Below are positions 4,766 to 37,681 of a DNA stretch of 64,000 bases, one piece after another. The stretch is from sequence record PP216085; one strand, given 5' to 3'. The translations under genes were made by a program, and so were the position numbers. Under the pieces are notes generated by a model. It was given only the letters and a program-made list of their open reading frames with translations, did not search any database and had not been told where the DNA came from. The stretch's first letter is position 1. Every line of letters begins with the position of its first letter. Origin of the DNA: Escherichia phage vB_EcoM_HZ_ZJUN4.

Positions 4766-5322
4766 TATTGCCTCTCATATACGTAGCTTCTCAATTTATT
4801 AGCCCAACGGCTCCAATTTCCAACTATAGTTTTTGTGTAATTTTTAACAAGAGTTTTTCTTATTGGAGCAGGAGGATCGGTTGGTTCAGTAGTATCAGAA
4901 GATGACCTAGAATTACTGCCAGAACCTCCAGATTCACTTTGTTCTTGGTAGTCATATATTAATGTTACTTCGTAAGTGAATGTCTTCTGAAGGTTTTGAG
5001 GAGCTTTCCATAGATATAACTGAGTATTAGAATCAGTTGGAAGGTCTTCCCACGAAGCAGCAGTTTTAAATTCATCATCTAAACGATATTTCAATGCGTC
5101 ATTTCCAAATCCAAACACAGATTCATACGTTCCATATAAACGATTTTCTTCTACTGAAACTCCAGGAGTTTCATCGTAACTAGTTATATTTATAGATACT
5201 AACGTTTCACCCGTTTCTAATTGAGCGGTAAAGGTGACGTCGATAGAAGAACCTTCCATGGATTCTCCTAAATCAGCGCTCATTGGAAGTATATTAGCCA
5301 ATGTCAATCCTCGATCCATCAA
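4765..5322 (-). CDS. conserved hypothetical protein in gp5.1 position (185 aa)
   Basis: 185-aa ORF between genes 5 and 5.4, overlapping the end of gene 5; acidic Ser/Gly-rich C-terminus; identity to T4 5.1 assumed from position only. Confidence 0.65.
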
Positions 5323-7021
5323 TTGTGTATTGACCAGATGAAATAGAACTCATAGATGCCATTTTTTCTGTCCAATCACCACCAACGTCCCAATCAACTG
5401 TCCCAGCAACTTTCCAAGAAAGATTTCCATTTACTGTATTAGTTTGATTTCCTTCAACTAAAGTAGTAGCATCCCCTTTAACTGTAATGTCAGCATTACC
5501 TTCAACTACAATAGTAACATTACCTTTTACTAGGATAGTTCCATTACCTTCAACTGTCTTAGTTTCATCGCCACGTACAAATATTGTATTGCTTCCATCT
5601 ATTTGATGGAGACGATTATCCATGTTGTAATAAATTTCTGATCCACCGACGTTAGTCTTTTTATCGCCAGCTACCAAAAAATTACCATCAGCATTTGTTA
5701 TATCATACAAATTATCAACAGTTTTTCTTGTTCTTCTTCCTGACGGTGATACTTCCTCATATGTTCCAGTCGGATGAACTAATCTGTATCGTTCTTGTCC
5801 CGGGGTATCGTCAAATTCCTGAATATGACCGCTTTCAGTTTCCATTGTATGAACATACGGATATTCACCTTTATATGAAGAAACAGGTTCTTTAAATAAA
5901 ATTCTCGAATCATTCGGAATAGGAGGGTCAGCTGGATCAGAAGACTTTGCTACAGCAGCAGCCATTGCTGACAAAGACCTAGCCGGTGTTTTCACTTCAA
6001 TACCGTATGATTCCAAATTACCTGTAAGAATAATCATGGTAACACGGGATGCACGGCCTTTTGTTTGTTGATACCACAATGAATCACGACCAGCTTTATA
6101 TGCTTTTTCCCAATCTCCGGCTAACATAGCTGTTAACATTGTGTTAAATTTAGCTACACCGCCAACACCCATCTGAAATGCCATATTTTCTAATGCCATT
6201 TGACGAGAACGATTAACTGCTTTCCAAACTGGGCCAACTTTAGAATGTGATTTAATGTCACGTTGCATATCAGCTAAATCACGTTCAAATAAAGTTACCG
6301 CTTCTTCCATTGTAATAGAACCTGGATTTCCGGTAATTTCACGACCAACTTGTTTTGATAAAACTTTATTAATTTGGGCCATATCACGAACTGGCTGCTT
6401 CATGATAAGATGACCAATACCAATTGTCGGATATCCTTCAGTATCCCAATAAACTTTTAGTCTTAATCCTTCATCACGGCGAAGCATTTCAGCCATTGAC
6501 ATATTTGGATTATCATCAGTTGGAATCTCTGATAGCGGTCTATCATCGGGATTTATCGCAGTGTCTAGATTACTATCTTGGATAATATTAGAAGACGAAT
6601 CATATCCTACTTCTCCGCCTTGGTTTAATACGTTAGTATCATTTCCTAGACGTCTAGGATACTGACCAGTTGGGTCAGAAAATCCTTCAAGTCTATTAGG
6701 TTTTTCGCGAACTATTCCACCATACGTTCCAAGGACAATTCCGTTAGTTTTCCATTTGTCTAAAAAATGACCATATACTCTAGTTCCTTCTACTGGCCCT
6801 GTAACAGAACCTCCAATTCCAGACATTGCTGCAGAAGTTATAGGTTGAATAACTGACATCCATGGTAATTTATCAGTTGGAATACCCATTACATCGCCTT
6901 GCGCTCTTTGAGGTGGATGCAGACCAACTACACGAACACGAACACGACCTAATTTTAATGGGTCCATTCTATCTTCAACAACACCAACAAACCAATTGAG
7001 GTTATTACTTATCATTTCCAT
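5294..7021 (-). CDS. 5: baseplate hub / cell-puncturing protein gp5 with internal lysozyme domain (575 aa)
   Basis: 575-aa ORF; central region resembles T4 lysozyme (EGLRLKVYWDTEGYPTIGIGHL); C-terminal VxGxxxxx beta-helix repeats. Confidence 0.94.
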   Translation of the reverse strand: MEMISNNLNWFVGVVEDRMDPLKLGRVRVRVVGLHPPQRAQGDVMGIPTDKLPWMSVIQPITSAAMSGIGGSVTGPVEGTRVYGHFLDKWKTNGIVLGTYGGIVREKPNRLEGFSDPTGQYPRRLGNDTNVLNQGGEVGYDSSSNIIQDSNLDTAINPDDRPLSEIPTDDNPNMSMAEMLRRDEGLRLKVYWDTEGYPTIGIGHLIMKQPVRDMAQINKVLSKQVGREITGNPGSITMEEAVTLFERDLADMQRDIKSHSKVGPVWKAVNRSRQMALENMAFQMGVGGVAKFNTMLTAMLAGDWEKAYKAGRDSLWYQQTKGRASRVTMIILTGNLESYGIEVKTPARSLSAMAAAVAKSSDPADPPIPNDSRILFKEPVSSYKGEYPYVHTMETESGHIQEFDDTPGQERYRLVHPTGTYEEVSPSGRRTRKTVDNLYDITNADGNFLVAGDKKTNVGGSEIYYNMDNRLHQIDGSNTIFVRGDETKTVEGNGTILVKGNVTIVVEGNADITVKGDATTLVEGNQTNTVNGNLSWKVAGTVDWDVGGDWTEKMASMSSISSGQYTIDGSRIDIG

Positions 7022-29837: not shown

Positions 29838-29839
29838 TA

Positions 29840-29864
29840 GGGAGCCTTCGGGCTCCCTTTTTTG
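29840..29864 (+). terminator. intrinsic terminator (GGGAGCC-TTCG-GGCTCCC + TTTTTT)
   Basis: Perfect 7-bp GC-rich stem, UUCG loop, T-tract. Confidence 0.75.
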
Positions 29865-29950: not shown

Positions 29951-30919
29951 ATGAAAACTGTAACTATCAATAAGGGTATCTACTTCGGTAAAGAAATCTC
30001 TGGAACTTTTGAGCTCTTAGGCGAATGGTTCCCAGATAATGCTCCGGTAGATGCACAAGGAGATGGTAAAGTTTTTGTTGAAATTGACGGCAAACGCCGC
30101 GGTGTTTGGGTTTACAAATCAGATATTTCATATGATGGTGTAAAAGTTGAAGAAGTTAAAGAATCATATGAAGATATGAAAACCCGCATTAATAAAAGAT
30201 TTAATGTTATGGGAATGATGACGAATGGTATTATTAACGGAAATATTCGTTCATTAATTATCTCTGGTGCGGCGGGTATTGGTAAAACGTATTCTTTAGA
30301 TAAAGCTTTGAATAAAGCAAATGATAATGGATACATTGAATATAAAAGCATTAATGGTAAAATCTCTGGTATCGGTCTTTATGAACAGCTTTGGAATAAT
30401 CGTGAAGAGAATTCTGTCCTTTTGATTGATGATGTGGATGTTTTCTCTGATATGGACATTCTTAATCTTCTGAAAGCTGCTCTGGACACTGGAGAGTCCC
30501 GTAAAGTCTGCTGGAGCACTGAATCTTCTTACTTAGAAGAAAAAGACATTGACCGTGAGTTTGAATTTAAAGGAACGATTGTTTTTATCACAAACGTTGA
30601 CATTGACCGCGAATTAGACCGTGGTACTAAACTTGCTCCACACTTACAAGCATTAGTGTCCCGCTCAGTTTATTTGGATTTGGGTGTTCACACTAATGAA
30701 GAAATTATGGTCAGGGTTGAAGATGTTATTCTTTCAACTGACATGATGCAAAAGCGCGGTCTTTCTGATGAAGAAACTTATAAAGCATTATCATGGATGA
30801 AAGTTAATGTTAATCGTTTACGCAATGTTTCACTGCGTACTGCTCTTTATCTTGCTGACTTTATTATGACCGACAAAAACGGTTGGGAAGAAATTGCTGA
30901 GGTTACTCTTCTGAAATAA
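29951..30919 (+). CDS. P-loop ATPase (AAA-like, 322 aa)
   Basis: Walker A GAAGIGKT and Walker B VLLIDDVD; start at ATG after GGAGAATAAA ribosome-binding site downstream of the promoter. Confidence 0.65.
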   Translation: MKTVTINKGIYFGKEISGTFELLGEWFPDNAPVDAQGDGKVFVEIDGKRRGVWVYKSDISYDGVKVEEVKESYEDMKTRINKRFNVMGMMTNGIINGNIRSLIISGAAGIGKTYSLDKALNKANDNGYIEYKSINGKISGIGLYEQLWNNREENSVLLIDDVDVFSDMDILNLLKAALDTGESRKVCWSTESSYLEEKDIDREFEFKGTIVFITNVDIDRELDRGTKLAPHLQALVSRSVYLDLGVHTNEEIMVRVEDVILSTDMMQKRGLSDEETYKALSWMKVNVNRLRNVSLRTALYLADFIMTDKNGWEEIAEVTLLK

Positions 30920-31383: not shown

Positions 31384-31911
31384 ATGAACGCTAAAGATAT
31401 TTTCAACCTGGTAAATTACAACGATGGTAAATTTAAATCTGAAGCACAAAGCAAGTTCTTTAATGACATCTCAATCGGAGGTGAAATCACTGTTGATGGA
31501 GGACAAATTTACAAATCCCGTTGGAATTGGATCGTTATTATTGATGAGATCGGTATTGTAGAAATTTACAAGAATACGAATAAAAATCGTACATTACACT
31601 GGTCTCGTGATACTAACGAACAGTACAAAAAGGATAAAGCATCTAAAATGTCTCGTGTAACTCAAGAAGATATTGAGTTCATCAAGAAAGATATTTTAAT
31701 GTATGATAACTTAATTGCTGAAGAGCAAGCTGTTATTGATAAATTTGATGAGATTAAAGCTTCTCGTGAAATTCCTGATTTTATGAAAGAATCAGTAAAT
31801 GAACGATACTCTCTCATTTCAGAGCGTATTGAAACTTACAAAAAGCAAAGAGCTGAACGCCAAAATACTCTTCGGAAGTTTGAAGAACGGTTAAAGACGG
31901 TACTCGCATAA
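31384..31911 (+). CDS. hypothetical protein (175 aa)
   Basis: ORF after promoter and GGAGGAA ribosome-binding site; C-terminal half predicted helical. Confidence 0.6.
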   Translation: MNAKDIFNLVNYNDGKFKSEAQSKFFNDISIGGEITVDGGQIYKSRWNWIVIIDEIGIVEIYKNTNKNRTLHWSRDTNEQYKKDKASKMSRVTQEDIEFIKKDILMYDNLIAEEQAVIDKFDEIKASREIPDFMKESVNERYSLISERIETYKKQRAERQNTLRKFEERLKTVLA

Positions 31912-32381: not shown

Positions 32382-33272
32382 ATGTCAGTAGTAATTAATA
32401 ATGTCAATGCAGTAATTAAATCATTAGTTAATAAAAAAATGATGAATGAATGGACTGTACTTCGCCGTGGAGAGCCAGATAAATTTTTTCATAGATTTAA
32501 CCCAACTTTGGATTTGAATGTTATCGACAAAGATGTTCATGCAGAAATTTTAGATAAGTTTAAAGTTGATATTGGATTTGGATTAGAAAAACATTTGCAG
32601 CGAACAACCGGGTCTGGAATGAGTTTATCTAATCGCATTATGAAAGCCCTTAATAAAATTGGAGCGTTGTCTCGTATTAATGCGAGCGAAATCCTTCGTA
32701 ATTATAATAAAGGATATGACCTTTACGGTCGACTAATGCCAAAATTATCATTCGATCAAATGATTGCGGATTTGTGGGAAAATCAACGACGATTATTAGC
32801 ATTAGGCGCTCGATTAGCTAAAGGTCTAGATAAACAAATGATTTTTAAGACCAATAATACAGAAGACCTTAAATGCTTTAAATTTAGTATTCGCGGAGAT
32901 GATTATTACATCAGAGCTCGCTCTACAGATTATGTTAATATGGGACATCATCTCTGTTTAGCTTTTGAAGTTTTAAAAGAAGCTGGAACACTAGAATATT
33001 CATCTGGTGCTAAATGCCCTATTGGTTCAAGTTGTATTTTAATTTATCGCCCGGATGAATCCAGTTCAACTAAATTGCCTACGAAACCTGTGCCAGTTCG
33101 TAGTAACGAAAAACATTCTGAACAAATTGATTATTTTAATAAGCAGATTGAAGAGCTGAATATTTCTATTCAACAATATGACGATGAAATTTTCAGACTA
33201 TCTGGATTGAGTAGTAAAGCTAAATCTGAGCGTGAAAAGTTAATTAAAATTGTTGATTTACTTAAATCTTAA
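32382..33272 (+). CDS. hypothetical protein with C-terminal coiled coil, array member 1 (296 aa)
   Basis: ATG after GAGGAAAA; last ~40 aa heptad-like (QIEELNISIQQYDDEIFRL...). Confidence 0.6.
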   Translation: MSVVINNVNAVIKSLVNKKMMNEWTVLRRGEPDKFFHRFNPTLDLNVIDKDVHAEILDKFKVDIGFGLEKHLQRTTGSGMSLSNRIMKALNKIGALSRINASEILRNYNKGYDLYGRLMPKLSFDQMIADLWENQRRLLALGARLAKGLDKQMIFKTNNTEDLKCFKFSIRGDDYYIRARSTDYVNMGHHLCLAFEVLKEAGTLEYSSGAKCPIGSSCILIYRPDESSSTKLPTKPVPVRSNEKHSEQIDYFNKQIEELNISIQQYDDEIFRLSGLSSKAKSEREKLIKIVDLLKS

Positions 33273-33280
33273 GGAACACT

Positions 33281-34309
33281 ATGAAAACTCGTTCTCAAAT
33301 TGAAGATATGGTTCGTAATGCTAGCTATACTCGTGATGTTATGACATTTTTGTGTGAAAATAATTTAGACCCTGATAAAGTTAATCGTGTTATTCATCAC
33401 TTTAAGTATACGAATAGCAGTGAATGGGTGCGTAATTTTAGTAAAGCGGGGTATATTACACAAATGACGGCTCGTGAGCAGCTCACCGATTTCTGTAAAA
33501 CTATTGATTATAAAAATCCTCTATTTGTTCAAGGCGTTGGTCAAAGTAAGGTCGATTTATCATCTGGATTTTTCAATCCAAATCATTATCGTATTGAATG
33601 GAGATTTATTGCTCTGTTCCGTAGACAATTAAAGCAAATTTTATCAACTGCGAGTCGATTAAAAGGTTCTGATATTAACTTAAAGAATCTGAAATTTGAT
33701 GGTTATACTCTTCAGATGGAAGTAAGACCATTAAAAGAAAATAATAGAACTGCACGAATTAGCTTTAAACCTAATACAAAAAATTCTCTTTCAATTTGCG
33801 AATGCCTTAAATTGCAGTTGACAGAAGCATTTAAGTATATGGATGTTGTTGCCGCTGTTCAGTCTAAGATTTTACCTCGTTTTGAGCGAAATTGGGAACA
33901 TACAACAACGTATGAACTTGATATGATCGTTTCATTTAAATACGATTTTTTGAGAAAGGACGAAGTCCCGCAAGAGAAAAAGCAGGAAGTACAAGATAAC
34001 TTAAATTTAAATTTATCCAATTACTCATCAAACGATCCTAAATTTTGGATGTATAGTTCAGGTAATAAAGATGCATGGAAATTCAATAAAGTGAATTTTC
34101 TTCCTGTTGAAAATCCGAGTCTTAAACCTGTTGAAAAATGGCACGCGGATGCGATTGAGAAGTCTATCAAGGCAGTAGATGATGAACTCGTTAAAGCAAC
34201 TAATGAAGTGCTAGAAGCTGAAAAGATGCTAGAAAAAGCTCAAGAAAAAGTCAAAAATCTCACGAAGCAACGTTCTAAACTGAACAATGCACTAAATGCA
34301 CTAAACTAG
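33281..34309 (+). CDS. hypothetical protein with C-terminal coiled coil, array member 2 (342 aa)
   Basis: Starts MKTRSQIEDMVRN; C-terminal coiled coil (VDDELVKATNEVLEAEKMLEKAQEKVKNL). Confidence 0.6.
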   Translation: MKTRSQIEDMVRNASYTRDVMTFLCENNLDPDKVNRVIHHFKYTNSSEWVRNFSKAGYITQMTAREQLTDFCKTIDYKNPLFVQGVGQSKVDLSSGFFNPNHYRIEWRFIALFRRQLKQILSTASRLKGSDINLKNLKFDGYTLQMEVRPLKENNRTARISFKPNTKNSLSICECLKLQLTEAFKYMDVVAAVQSKILPRFERNWEHTTTYELDMIVSFKYDFLRKDEVPQEKKQEVQDNLNLNLSNYSSNDPKFWMYSSGNKDAWKFNKVNFLPVENPSLKPVEKWHADAIEKSIKAVDDELVKATNEVLEAEKMLEKAQEKVKNLTKQRSKLNNALNALN

Positions 34310-34338
34310 TTTACTTTGCCACAAGGATGTGGTATAAT
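34309..34338 (+). promoter_or_regulatory. early promoter
   Basis: TAGTTTAC ... GTGGTATAAT. Confidence 0.6.
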
Positions 34339-34366
34339 GTTCTTACTTTCTACTGAGGAGATTAAT

Positions 34367-35368
34367 ATGACTCGTAACGAATATATCAAATCATTCAATA
34401 GTGTTATTGATGATAAAGCTATACCGGTGTTTGGCCAAAATAGCGTTATTTCTATTATCAATCAATGGCTCAATAGCGTTGACGCGAGTATTGTTTCTTC
34501 TGCTAAATTTATTCATGAAATTCGTAAAATTTCTAGCCGTGTAGATAAAGATGTTATCAAGAAAACCTTTAAAGAGTCTCGTCTTCTTTCATATTTGGTT
34601 AATCGGGATATTCTTGGTAATTTTGGGAAAGAAATTAAACGAACCAAAGATGTAGTAGGATATAATTGGTTCGGTGATGTTAATTCTTATCATCTTAATG
34701 TCAAAGAAGACCCTGAGAATATTTTTACTCGTCGTTGGATTAGTAATTTCAGACTTTTCAAAGGACAGATTCTAAAATCAGCTTCTAAATTATGTTATGG
34801 CGATTATCGTCAAATTCATCCTTTGGCTTCTGATATGATTATCATAAAAGAATATGAACTTGATAAAAATAAAGTATCTATTTTTGTGAATTATGGATTT
34901 TTTACACCAGAAACTAACCAAAAGAATATTAATAAATTTTTCTCAATTGCTAGCACTATAACTCGTCAATTAGAAACCGCATTACTTTGTATGGAAACGG
35001 TAGAAAATATTCATACTTATCCTTTTAAGAATATGTGTGGTTGGGAAGGATATAAAATTATAATTAGCCTTCGTGAAGTGAAATGCGCTTATTCACCGAC
35101 TGATAAAGAAATTTACCAACAAAAATGTGATGAAATTGTGAATACTCCTAAAGAAGAAACTACCCTTGAAGAACTAATGGATAATCTTGACGATTCGCCT
35201 GAACCGATAGAAATTCGTCCAGAAGTTATTGCACTAGAAAAAGCTTATAAAGAAGTTCTAGAAATTTCTAATAAAGCGCAGAAAGAATATGAGAAGGCTA
35301 AAAGGATTTGGGAAGAATCTGTTAATCGCCTGGATCGTCTTGAACAAGCTTTACAGCTAATTAAGTAA
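34367..35368 (+). CDS. hypothetical protein with C-terminal coiled coil, array member 3 (333 aa)
   Basis: ATG after GAGGAGATTAAT downstream of promoter; starts MTRNEYIKSFNSV; C-terminal coiled coil. Confidence 0.6.
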   Translation: MTRNEYIKSFNSVIDDKAIPVFGQNSVISIINQWLNSVDASIVSSAKFIHEIRKISSRVDKDVIKKTFKESRLLSYLVNRDILGNFGKEIKRTKDVVGYNWFGDVNSYHLNVKEDPENIFTRRWISNFRLFKGQILKSASKLCYGDYRQIHPLASDMIIIKEYELDKNKVSIFVNYGFFTPETNQKNINKFFSIASTITRQLETALLCMETVENIHTYPFKNMCGWEGYKIIISLREVKCAYSPTDKEIYQQKCDEIVNTPKEETTLEELMDNLDDSPEPIEIRPEVIALEKAYKEVLEISNKAQKEYEKAKRIWEESVNRLDRLEQALQLIK

Positions 35369-35420
35369 TTTAAAGCCAAGGATGGCTCGGAGTATAAATC
35401 ATTAACCAAGTGAGAAGAAC

Positions 35421-36350
35421 ATGAAAACTCGTAAACATTATATTGATTATTTTGACAGTCTTATTACTAAACATCGTAATTATCAGATAGGACATAGAGC
35501 AGTAATCAATAATATTCTTCGTGATTTCCTTCAATATGTTGGCCAGGAAAATCATATCTGTAAAGATACACAGAACGCTTATTCTCATTCGTTGGGCAAT
35601 TTGCTTCAATGGTTTAAACGTTCTCGTATGTTATCTTCTACTGTAGCTCGTGATAACATTAAAAACTTTATGAAGCCGAGCTTTATTAAATCTGAGACAT
35701 CTATAACTGATTTGGTTGAATTTACTATTGTTAACGATGTTAAAAAGACCCATTTGGCTGATTGGTTATCTACCATTCCTGAAACTAAATTTGCTGATAA
35801 ATTCGCTTGTCAATTCAATGACCAAGTGAATATGCTTTTTAAGCATGCTCGTAAACTATTTACCGCAGGCGATGACCGTACAAATACAGTTCATGTTAAG
35901 GACTGGGTTATTGCTGATGAAGTAACGCACAAGCCAGGTGGTTCATCAGTATTAATTAATATCCAGGTTCCTTATTATTACTCACGTAATCTCGGCACCA
36001 TGACAGCTAGAGAAATTAATAAGCATAACAAAACTATTCGTTCGTTGTCTTATAAACTCTGCACGATGGTGGAGATGATGGACGTAGTGGAAATGTATGA
36101 TGAAACCGAAGATAATAGTTCAATGTTATACAGTTCACGCATTTTAATTAAACTGAAGAATCCTAATACATATAAGCCAGTTGTAAAAGAACCTAAAGTA
36201 GAAAAGGTTGATAACTTGAGCGAAGAACGTGAATACCTCAAATCTCGACTAGTTGAAGTTGAAGCCCAGATTGCCGAACACACCAAATTGTTAAAAGCTC
36301 TTAATGCAAAAGCAAATGGTTTACGCAATGCTATTGAGGTATTGAAATGA
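35421..36350 (+). CDS. hypothetical protein with C-terminal coiled coil, array member 4 (309 aa)
   Basis: Starts MKTRKHYIDYFDSL; C-terminal coiled coil (EREYLKSRLVEVEAQIAEHTKLLKALNAK). Confidence 0.6.
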   Translation: MKTRKHYIDYFDSLITKHRNYQIGHRAVINNILRDFLQYVGQENHICKDTQNAYSHSLGNLLQWFKRSRMLSSTVARDNIKNFMKPSFIKSETSITDLVEFTIVNDVKKTHLADWLSTIPETKFADKFACQFNDQVNMLFKHARKLFTAGDDRTNTVHVKDWVIADEVTHKPGGSSVLINIQVPYYYSRNLGTMTAREINKHNKTIRSLSYKLCTMVEMMDVVEMYDETEDNSSMLYSSRILIKLKNPNTYKPVVKEPKVEKVDNLSEEREYLKSRLVEVEAQIAEHTKLLKALNAKANGLRNAIEVLK

Positions 36351-36664
36351 AAAAGCGTCTATTAGAAGATATTGCAGCTTCAAGTAATTCCAGTCTAATT
36401 AAAATTATTATGGCTGGTGAAGAAGACGATCTGGAAATGCGCGGAAAGATTCATGGTTGTGACGATCTAGACTTTAAACCTCCTGCTTGGGATGCCATTA
36501 TGGCTATGGTTGAACGTCGCGAAAGGGCTTCTAAGAGTGTTCCGAACTGCCCAAAATGTGGTACCGAACAGGTACAATTAGTTCATTGGCAGACTAGTAT
36601 TCTTCGTTATAAATGTCGTCATTGCAAACACCGATTTAACCGAGAAGAAAATGACAAAGCGTAA
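36347..36664 (+). CDS. zinc-ribbon protein (105 aa)
   Basis: CPKCG ... CRHCKH four-Cys zinc-ribbon near C-terminus; acidic N-terminus. Confidence 0.6.
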
Positions 36665-36894: not shown

Positions 36895-37158
36895 ATGTTT
36901 AAAGTATATGGTTATGATAGCAACATCCATAAATGTGTGTATTGTGATAATGCAAAACGTCTCTTGACTGTGAAGAAACAGCCGTTTGAATTTATCAACA
37001 TTATGCCGGAAAAAGGTGTTTTTGATGATGAGAAAATCGCTGAGCTTCTGACTAAACTAGGTCGTGATACTCAAATCGGATTGACGATGCCTCAGGTATT
37101 TGCTCCTGATGGAAGTCATATTGGTGGATTTGACCAATTGCGGGAATACTTTAAATGA
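36895..37158 (+). CDS. nrdC: thioredoxin/glutaredoxin NrdC (87 aa)
   Basis: MFKVYGYDSNIHKCVYCDNAKRLL... with CVYC active site; 87 aa as in T4 NrdC. Confidence 0.92.
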   Translation: MFKVYGYDSNIHKCVYCDNAKRLLTVKKQPFEFINIMPEKGVFDDEKIAELLTKLGRDTQIGLTMPQVFAPDGSHIGGFDQLREYFK

Positions 37159-37370
37159 TGCTTGAAGGAACTGATTATATCCATGACTACCGCGGAAGCG
37201 CGGTATATGTGGGTGATGAGGTTGCAGTTTATTATGGGTATGGAACTTTGATGACAGCAAAGGTTATTCAAATTAAAAATGGCCGTGCTAAACTCGAAGT
37301 TTATTATTCTAATGGTGAAAAGTCTATTTCTAAATGGAAATATGGCGATTGCATGGTTAAACTGGGGTAA
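37155..37370 (+). CDS. hypothetical protein (71 aa)
   Basis: ORF overlapping the nrdC stop. Confidence 0.55.
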   Translation: MMLEGTDYIHDYRGSAVYVGDEVAVYYGYGTLMTAKVIQIKNGRAKLEVYYSNGEKSISKWKYGDCMVKLG

Positions 37371-37372
37371 AT

Positions 37373-37681
37373 ATGATTTACGATGTTGATGCAGTTTTGA
37401 GCGAAATCATCGAAGACCATGATGCATTTTCTGAAAATTATGATTTCGATTTTTCGGATTATCTTAAACCTATCGAAATAGAAGACTGGGTACAAGATGG
37501 CAAATGCCAATATCGGCAGTGTGTTTATTTTAGCCCAAAACATAATGTACATGTTTCCGTAAATGAATGCCGTTCAGGTTCTTATCATTCTGACTGGTAT
37601 TATGCAGTTCCAACTGTTGAGTTAGTTGAACTACGAGAACGTGTAGTAACTCAGACAATACGAGAATGGATTACGCTATAA
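37373..37681 (+). CDS. hypothetical protein (102 aa)
   Basis: Acidic ORF with four Cys. Confidence 0.55.
   Translation: MIYDVDAVLSEIIEDHDAFSENYDFDFSDYLKPIEIEDWVQDGKCQYRQCVYFSPKHNVHVSVNECRSGSYHSDWYYAVPTVELVELRERVVTQTIREWITL

Follow-up and report, generated by a model that had tools for sequence, protein, structure and literature searches.

The nrdC.6 to nrdC.3 array

We analysed a 64,000-nucleotide stretch of Escherichia phage vB_EcoM_HZ_ZJUN4 (sequence record PP216085, here called the window) and focused on a tandem array of four genes located between positions 32382 and 36350. The phage is a Tequatrovirus, which means it is T4-like, and many Tequatrovirus genomes match the 4.1-kb region of the array with 96-97% identity. 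An initial annotation made from the letters alone had described four consecutive open reading frames (ORFs) of 296, 342, 333 and 309 amino acids, and both the coordinates and the lengths were confirmed. Comparison with the T4 reference annotation identified the four ORFs, all on the plus strand, as nrdC.6, nrdC.5, nrdC.4 and nrdC.3; the corresponding proteins were labeled A, B, C and D in this order. As judged by profile comparison, the four proteins are full-length paralogues of one family which is specific for T4-like phages. This family assignment is new, whereas the presence of the array in the accessory genome of T4 and the anti-defence role of NrdC.5 were already known.

The nrdC.6 homologue (32382-33272) encodes the most divergent paralogue of 296 amino acids, with 98% identity to T4 NrdC.6 over residues 1-259. 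It is followed by the nrdC.5 homologue (33281-34309; 342 amino acids, 95% identity to T4 NrdC.5 over 342 amino acids), which lies between the orthologues of nrdC.6 and nrdC.4 as in T4. The nrdC.4 homologue (34367-35368) encodes 333 amino acids and is 96% identical to the T4 protein. The last gene, the nrdC.3 homologue (35421-36350; 309 amino acids), is an allele that diverges from T4, with 60% identity to T4 NrdC.3. Each of the four ORFs is preceded by a Shine-Dalgarno-like GAGG/AGGA sequence. Three of the proteins start with similar N-termini, MKTRSQ in NrdC.5, MTRNEY in NrdC.4 and MKTRKH in NrdC.3, just as the initial annotation had pointed out.

Existing family databases divide these proteins. 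NrdC.6 was assigned to phrog_2257 (2.8e-152) and NrdC.5 to phrog_2351, and phrog_1435 takes both NrdC.4 (2.2e-167) and NrdC.3 (6e-116), each over the full length. In Pfam, DUF7235 (PF23882) covers residues 1-342 of NrdC.5 with profile positions 1-307 of 307 (431.8 bits, E 2.2e-129; gathering score 30 bits), and the precomputed labels are PF26899 for NrdC.6 and PF26897 for NrdC.3.

Relationship of the four proteins

The initial annotation had assumed four dissimilar bodies sharing only a coiled coil. The bodies turned out to be homologous. For NrdC.4 and NrdC.3 this is already visible by BLASTP, with 25% identity over 271 amino acids (E 2e-7), and hhalign gave a probability of 99% for this pair. 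Pairwise BLASTP found no significant match of NrdC.6 to NrdC.5, NrdC.4 or NrdC.3, nor of NrdC.5 to NrdC.4 or NrdC.3. We therefore do not rely on pairwise searches for the remaining combinations; pairwise comparison of the family alignments by hhalign was weak for NrdC.6 as well, and the merged-profile comparisons alone are convincing. For these, the per-family alignments were built from database homologues and from the loci of other phages, and each family was compared by hhalign with the merged alignment of the other three. With one family left out at a time the probabilities were 88.8% for NrdC.6 (P 2.4e-6), 94.3% for NrdC.5 (9.6e-8), 96.8% for NrdC.4 (2.4e-10) and 95.2% for NrdC.3 (2.7e-8). 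The match lies wholly within the body for NrdC.6, NrdC.5 and NrdC.4 and spans body to C-terminus for NrdC.3; NrdC.6 matches the merged profile of the other three via residues 75-149. Reversed and column-shuffled control alignments gave probabilities of at most 2.7% (P at least 0.017), and the unrelated neighbour NrdC.8, used as negative control, showed a probability of 0.7% against the family.

The same relationship is found in a series of collinear motifs which are present in all four proteins. The series begins with (K/R)x(S/G)xxLSxxxAxxxLxxF, followed by a long helix that terminates in (A/S)RLxxGxD/R and by a strand. Further downstream are a helix with LxxAL...M(D/E)xV, a hydrophobic strand, a linker ending in KP(V/I), and the terminal helix. 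In addition, Kanagawavirus IME523 has a single family member, and this protein bridges the two most distant families, as it matches the profile of NrdC.6 (9e-9) as well as that of NrdC.5 (9e-7). Alignment thus related the four proteins along the whole body, and the opposite outcome, four unrelated proteins, did not occur.

NrdC.8 (31384-31911) was considered as a fifth member, as it also ends in a heptad-rich helix, and was rejected with an hhalign probability of at most 1.2%. Separately, a 175-amino-acid protein of Klebsiella phage KPV15 is a weak structural match of the NrdC.5 model; NrdC.8 likewise has 175 amino acids.

AlphaFold2 models were obtained for NrdC.6 and NrdC.5. The NrdC.6 model has a mean predicted local distance difference test score (pLDDT) of 80.5 and a predicted template modelling score (pTM) of 0.66. 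The order of elements is equal in both models: N-terminal helices, a long helix, a ββ-α-ββ unit, a disordered linker (residues 228-242 in NrdC.6 and 226-284 in NrdC.5) and a long terminal helix. Searches of BFVD with the NrdC.5 model returned uncharacterised proteins of T4-like phages only (Cronus, Mineola, fHe-Yen9-01, Aeromonas 65.2 and Serratia PS2). The NrdC.6 model matched the NrdC.6 orthologues and then proteins of IME523, Pectobacterium PM2 and the Acinetobacter phages Acj9, Acj61 and fHyAci03; the Mineola and fHe-Yen9-01 proteins are neighbours common to both models. All four proteins appear to share one architecture, consisting of variable N-terminal helices, a conserved long helix with the (A/S)RLxxGxD/R turn, a small ββ-α-ββ domain, a disordered linker that is acidic or rich in proline, and an amphipathic helix of 46-56 residues. 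Similarities to the αββ-αββ periplasmic domains of EpsL/EpsM from the type II secretion system and to the cap domains of HAD-IIB phosphatases had low scores, 5-12% identity and were confined to the small sub-domain; we regard them as a generic fold resemblance without functional link.

The C-terminal helix is indeed rich in heptads in all four proteins, only its length had been underestimated with about 35 residues. One unbroken heptad register fits the 50, 56, 46 and 50 C-terminal residues of NrdC.6, NrdC.5, NrdC.4 and NrdC.3, respectively, and 85-94% of the a/d positions are hydrophobic. On the plus strand, the helix of NrdC.6 (residues 246-295; 33117-33266) is modelled by AlphaFold2 with a pLDDT of 87-92 and has 86% hydrophobic a/d positions, and that of NrdC.5 (residues 286-341; 34136-34303), also a helix in the AlphaFold2 model, combines its 56-residue register with the highest share, 94%. 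The last 46 residues of NrdC.4 (35228-35365; 85%) align with the helices of NrdC.6 and NrdC.5, and the last 50 residues of NrdC.3 (36198-36347; 86%) again follow a single register. Using a crude heptad score for the C-terminal 28-mer of the 174 ORFs of the window, NrdC.5 and NrdC.3 rank first and second and NrdC.4 fourth; NrdC.6 has a peak of similar size (10.75) slightly inside the C-terminus. The weak matches of the family profile in the PDB (E at least 0.01) are all known coiled coils: SPC42, GCN4 fusions, NEMO and tetherin.

Distribution, decay and alleles in T4-like phages

A search of 1.84 billion proteins with a profile of the whole family yielded 32 cluster representatives at E ≤ 1e-3. 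Two of them, P0216 and P0221, are repeat proteins matching only the SRLVxGxD-like motif and were discarded. The full-length representatives have 284-348 amino acids and the same architecture. Within the scope of this search the family is restricted to T4-like phages.

A family gene is found at the syntenic position in every sampled genus of the Tevenvirinae, even when only a single copy is present. The copy number at this locus varies between one and four: four copies in T4, RB14, sb4 and the window, three in LYE-01 (without nrdC.4) and in Gaprivervirus and Dhakavirus (without nrdC.3), two in Salmonella phage Manna, and one in Kagamiyamavirus EcS1 and Kanagawavirus IME523. The nrdC.5-like protein of Gaprivervirus and Dhakavirus shows just 23-28% identity to NrdC.5 of the window. 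These two genera also have a conserved 71-amino-acid ORF between nrdC.6 and the nrdC.5-like gene, and nrdC.7 is missing.

In several phages individual copies are damaged or rearranged. The nrdC.6 gene is truncated in sb4, and nrdC.5 is split in Ec_YwIITB1. In the T4 reference (NC_000866) nrdC.6 has a 1-bp deletion relative to window positions 33150-33160 (GCTGAATATT -> GCTG-ATATT), which frameshifts the last ~37 codons and abolishes the coiled-coil helix. Because the DNA 3' of the deletion is otherwise nearly identical, the deletion reflects either a recent pseudogenisation in T4 or an error in the reference. In Manna (5215-6252 of its locus) NrdC.6 residues 1-~269 are fused in frame with NrdC.4 residues ~255-333, which comprise its linker and tail; the junction is a QQxxDEI microhomology, and nrdC.5 and most of nrdC.4 are deleted. 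NrdC.6 of Shigella phage Sf25 (P0058, 378 amino acids) contains an internal tandem duplication of ~82 residues. Two metagenomic proteins are composite as well. P0056 is a chimera of NrdC.5 residues ~146-275 and NrdC.3 residues ~147-309, and P0209 (173 amino acids) joins an unrelated N-terminal part of ~120 residues to an exact NrdC.5 tail; the latter could be an assembly chimera, because nothing in the phage collection matches its N-terminal part.

Across the Tequatroviruses the four array proteins are 88-99% identical, apart from NrdC.3 with 60% to T4, compared with 96-100% for NrdC, NrdC.1 and gp49. NrdC.3 of the window is 92-96% identical to the proteins of RB14, sb4, LYE-01 and Manna, and the genes flanking it are 86-100% identical to T4. 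We conclude from these values that two deeply diverged nrdC.3 alleles circulate in Tequatrovirus. Between the two allele types the first ~70 residues and the tail are kept, including 14 identical residues at the very end, and the core (residues ~75-270), where the divergence lies, is only 23-57% identical. Such a pattern would fit a specificity surface. Taken together, the description of the array as a diversifying paralogue family held up, with one to four copies at a syntenic locus among T4-like phages, decay, fusion and the 60%-identical nrdC.3 alleles next to neighbours of 98-100% identity.

The array is preceded by nrdC.10, which codes for an AAA/STAND-like NTPase, by nrdC.9 and nrdC.8, and by nrdC.7, a gene for a membrane protein; it is followed by nrdC.2, nrdC.1, nrdC, 49.2, 49.1, pin, gene 49 and nrdD. 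A promoter-like site on the plus strand (TTTACT-17-TATAAT with TG, 34310-34338) was found by a consensus scan with 10 of 12 matches in the 57-nt gap 5' of nrdC.4. It is weak evidence, because this AT-rich region has many such sites (44 found versus 32 expected). The nrdC.10 homologue (29951-30919) has weak, sub-threshold matches to P-loop NTPases (nSTAND3, AAA_16 and AAA_22, E ~1e-4), and some relatives (RB14 and sb4) lack the gene or have a truncated copy. Immediately 5' of it, at 29839-29858, there is a strong GC-rich hairpin with a T run (AGGGAGCCTTCGGGCTCCCT TTTTTG), which is terminator-like on the plus strand; the scan listed the same palindrome on the minus strand as well. In the nrdC.2 homologue (36347-36664) the C-terminus shows the CxxC...CxxC signature of a zinc ribbon, and several zinc-ribbon entries of Pfam match it below threshold; the length of the homologue varies among relatives. 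A 102-amino-acid ORF at 37373-37681 aligns with T4 gene 49.2, and gene 49.3 of T4 seems to be replaced in the window by a 71-amino-acid ORF at 37155-37370.

Possible function of the array

Experimental data on function are available for one member of the family. An evolved T4 clone with deletions was unable to plate on ECOR17, and deletion of dsr1 in the host restored plating (Srikant et al., eLife 2022, PMC9391042). Plasmid-expressed T4 nrdC.5, an early and non-essential gene, also restored plating of the deletion phage on E. coli carrying ECOR17 dsr1 (PMC9391042). With its high identity, its position between nrdC.6 and nrdC.4 and the full-length match to DUF7235, NrdC.5 of the window is the orthologue of this anti-DSR1 factor; the plating rescue itself was shown for the T4 protein. 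The other three proteins are remote paralogues of T4 NrdC.5 with a like architecture, and they differ from it in not reaching DUF7235, even at E ≤ 1. Our literature searches found no functional work on nrdC.3, nrdC.4 or nrdC.6. Thus the guess of a counter-defence role, which the initial annotation had made for the whole array, has experimental backing for NrdC.5 against DSR1, and the other three are candidates. They are good candidates for anti-defence factors because a member of their own family neutralises DSR1.

The paralogy, the architecture, the restricted distribution and the changing copy number are established here or in the literature, as is, by genetics, that NrdC.5 antagonises DSR1. 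The explanation that we favour, and to which we give about an even chance of being correct, is that the array consists of tandem paralogues acting as oligomeric, non-enzymatic, stoichiometric binders or inhibitors of host immune proteins. The four genes would have arisen by duplication of a single gene, and a single copy of that gene sits at the same place, between the nrdC.10 ATPase gene and nrdC, in other Tevenvirinae genera. The coiled coil would form a homo-oligomer and thereby allow multivalent binding to oligomeric defence proteins, and the fast-evolving core would set the choice of the host protein bound. NrdC.5 would then block DSR1, a SIR2-type NADase, and might be expected to do so by direct binding, whereas NrdC.3, NrdC.4 and NrdC.6 would target other host factors. 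The expected mode of action resembles that of DSAD1 from the Bacillus phage SPbeta, which is non-enzymatic and inhibits DSR2, a defence-associated sirtuin NADase, by direct binding. This is a functional analogy only; we found no sequence or fold similarity of the family to DSAD1. Oligomerisation via the C-terminal tail is plausible from the heptad pattern, and homo-oligomers are probably formed, because genera with a single copy cannot use hetero-oligomers and isolates without one or two of the copies keep the others. If homo-oligomers are formed at all, the single-copy genera would argue that this is the ancestral state.

The behavior of the locus supports the favoured explanation: a copy number of one to four, copies that are frameshifted, split, truncated or fused, and the diverged nrdC.3 alleles resemble an arms race. 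The missing enzyme signal may likewise be taken to support a non-enzymatic mode of action. The array also resembles two accessory factors encoded in the same nrdC-pin stretch, gp49.2, whose T6 homologue was recently reported to inhibit the OLD defence (PMC13096335), and the Lon inhibitor Pin. Like the array, both belong to the small early accessory genes, occur only in Straboviridae and are not needed on laboratory hosts, but they are unrelated to it in sequence and size and do not form a paralogue array with a coiled-coil tail.

Several points weigh against this explanation. A phenotype is available for NrdC.5 alone among the four proteins, and NrdC.5 could act indirectly. Oligomerisation and direct binding, as well as any function of NrdC.3, NrdC.4 and NrdC.6, are inferred by us. 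The NrdC.5 model is moderately confident, with a mean pLDDT of 68.7 and a pTM of 0.53. A hidden Markov model built from the tails only (last 40 residues, three families) did not detect the fourth family above background, so that the tail by itself cannot support a claim of homology. Wider family alignments nevertheless show an ending like QRxKLxxA(I/L)xxL(K/N) in most full-length members. Finally, the motifs are strongly conserved throughout the family and the gene occupies one locus in every sampled genus, which could mean one common partner or a housekeeping role and not many host targets.

This last point leads to the main rival explanation, which we consider possible but doubtful. According to it, all copies have one conserved function, for example towards one host or phage partner in early takeover; the copies would be partly redundant and the anti-DSR1 effect would be a side effect or indirect. 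It would account for the conservation of (K/R)x(S/G)xxLSxxxAxxxLxxF, (A/S)RLxxGxD/R and the QRxKLxxAIxxLK tail across proteins that are only 10-20% identical, for the syntenic gene even in single-copy genera, and for the structural relatives in T4-like phages of Acinetobacter, Aeromonas, Erwinia and Klebsiella. Three observations count against a common function of this kind: T4 can do without the region on laboratory hosts, and evolved T4 clones have lost it (PMC9391042); natural isolates contain single copies that are frameshifted, split, truncated or deleted; and there are the nrdC.3 alleles, whose differences lie mainly in the core and suit changing targets better than a fixed partner.

A more specific possibility, which we regard as unlikely, is that the paralogues are diversified decoys or inhibitors of immune proteins with a tetratricopeptide repeat (TPR) sensor. 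According to a 2026 preprint (PMC12803255), Dsr1 recognises the major capsid proteins of phages with a TPR sensor that is homologous to the sensor of Avs7. The individual paralogues and nrdC.3 alleles would each be adapted to another variant of such DSR1/Avs7-related, capsid-recognising sensors, and the coiled coil together with (A/S)RLxxGxD/R would provide a common inhibitory mechanism. If this were true, the genes would form a family of immune antagonists that extends across the Straboviridae and can be compared to an anti-CRISPR locus, and their specificity could be read from the core domain.

An enzymatic role is poorly supported, and we think it very unlikely that the proteins are enzymes, with (A/S)RLxxGxD/R as active site, which act against NAD+ depletion or modify some component of host or phage. 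In favour of such a role, DSR1 is an NADase and phages are known to counter NAD+ depletion enzymatically via NARP pathways; moreover, nearly all family members have the motif with its conserved Arg, Gly and Asp/Arg. Searches of PDB, Pfam and NCBIfam gave no homologue pointing to an enzyme, and a conserved His/Asp/Glu/Cys/Ser constellation is not present in the wide family alignment. The variable effector domains on a common tail proposed in the initial annotation did not materialise either, as the bodies probably have one fold throughout and no sign of enzymatic effectors was seen. That four unrelated bodies represent different effector domains on a common coiled-coil docking module is scarcely credible and is contradicted by the present data: the largely negative pairwise BLASTP, the split of the four proteins into three families by Pfam and PHROGs and the natural tail swaps in Manna and P0209 speak for it, but the profile-profile matches are located in the bodies and are robust to controls, NrdC.6 and NrdC.5 share the order of secondary structure, BFVD neighbours and a bridging sequence, and of all parts the tail by itself has the least diagnostic value.

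The assignment to one family unites DUF7235, PF26897, PF26899 and the single-copy genes of other T4-like genera in one group. It names three concrete anti-defence candidates in T4, the best-studied phage, and marks the variable core as the likely determinant of specificity, with the common machinery in the tail and motifs that are conserved. Since the shared architecture and the variable core are known, mutants, chimeras and natural alleles can be designed directly.

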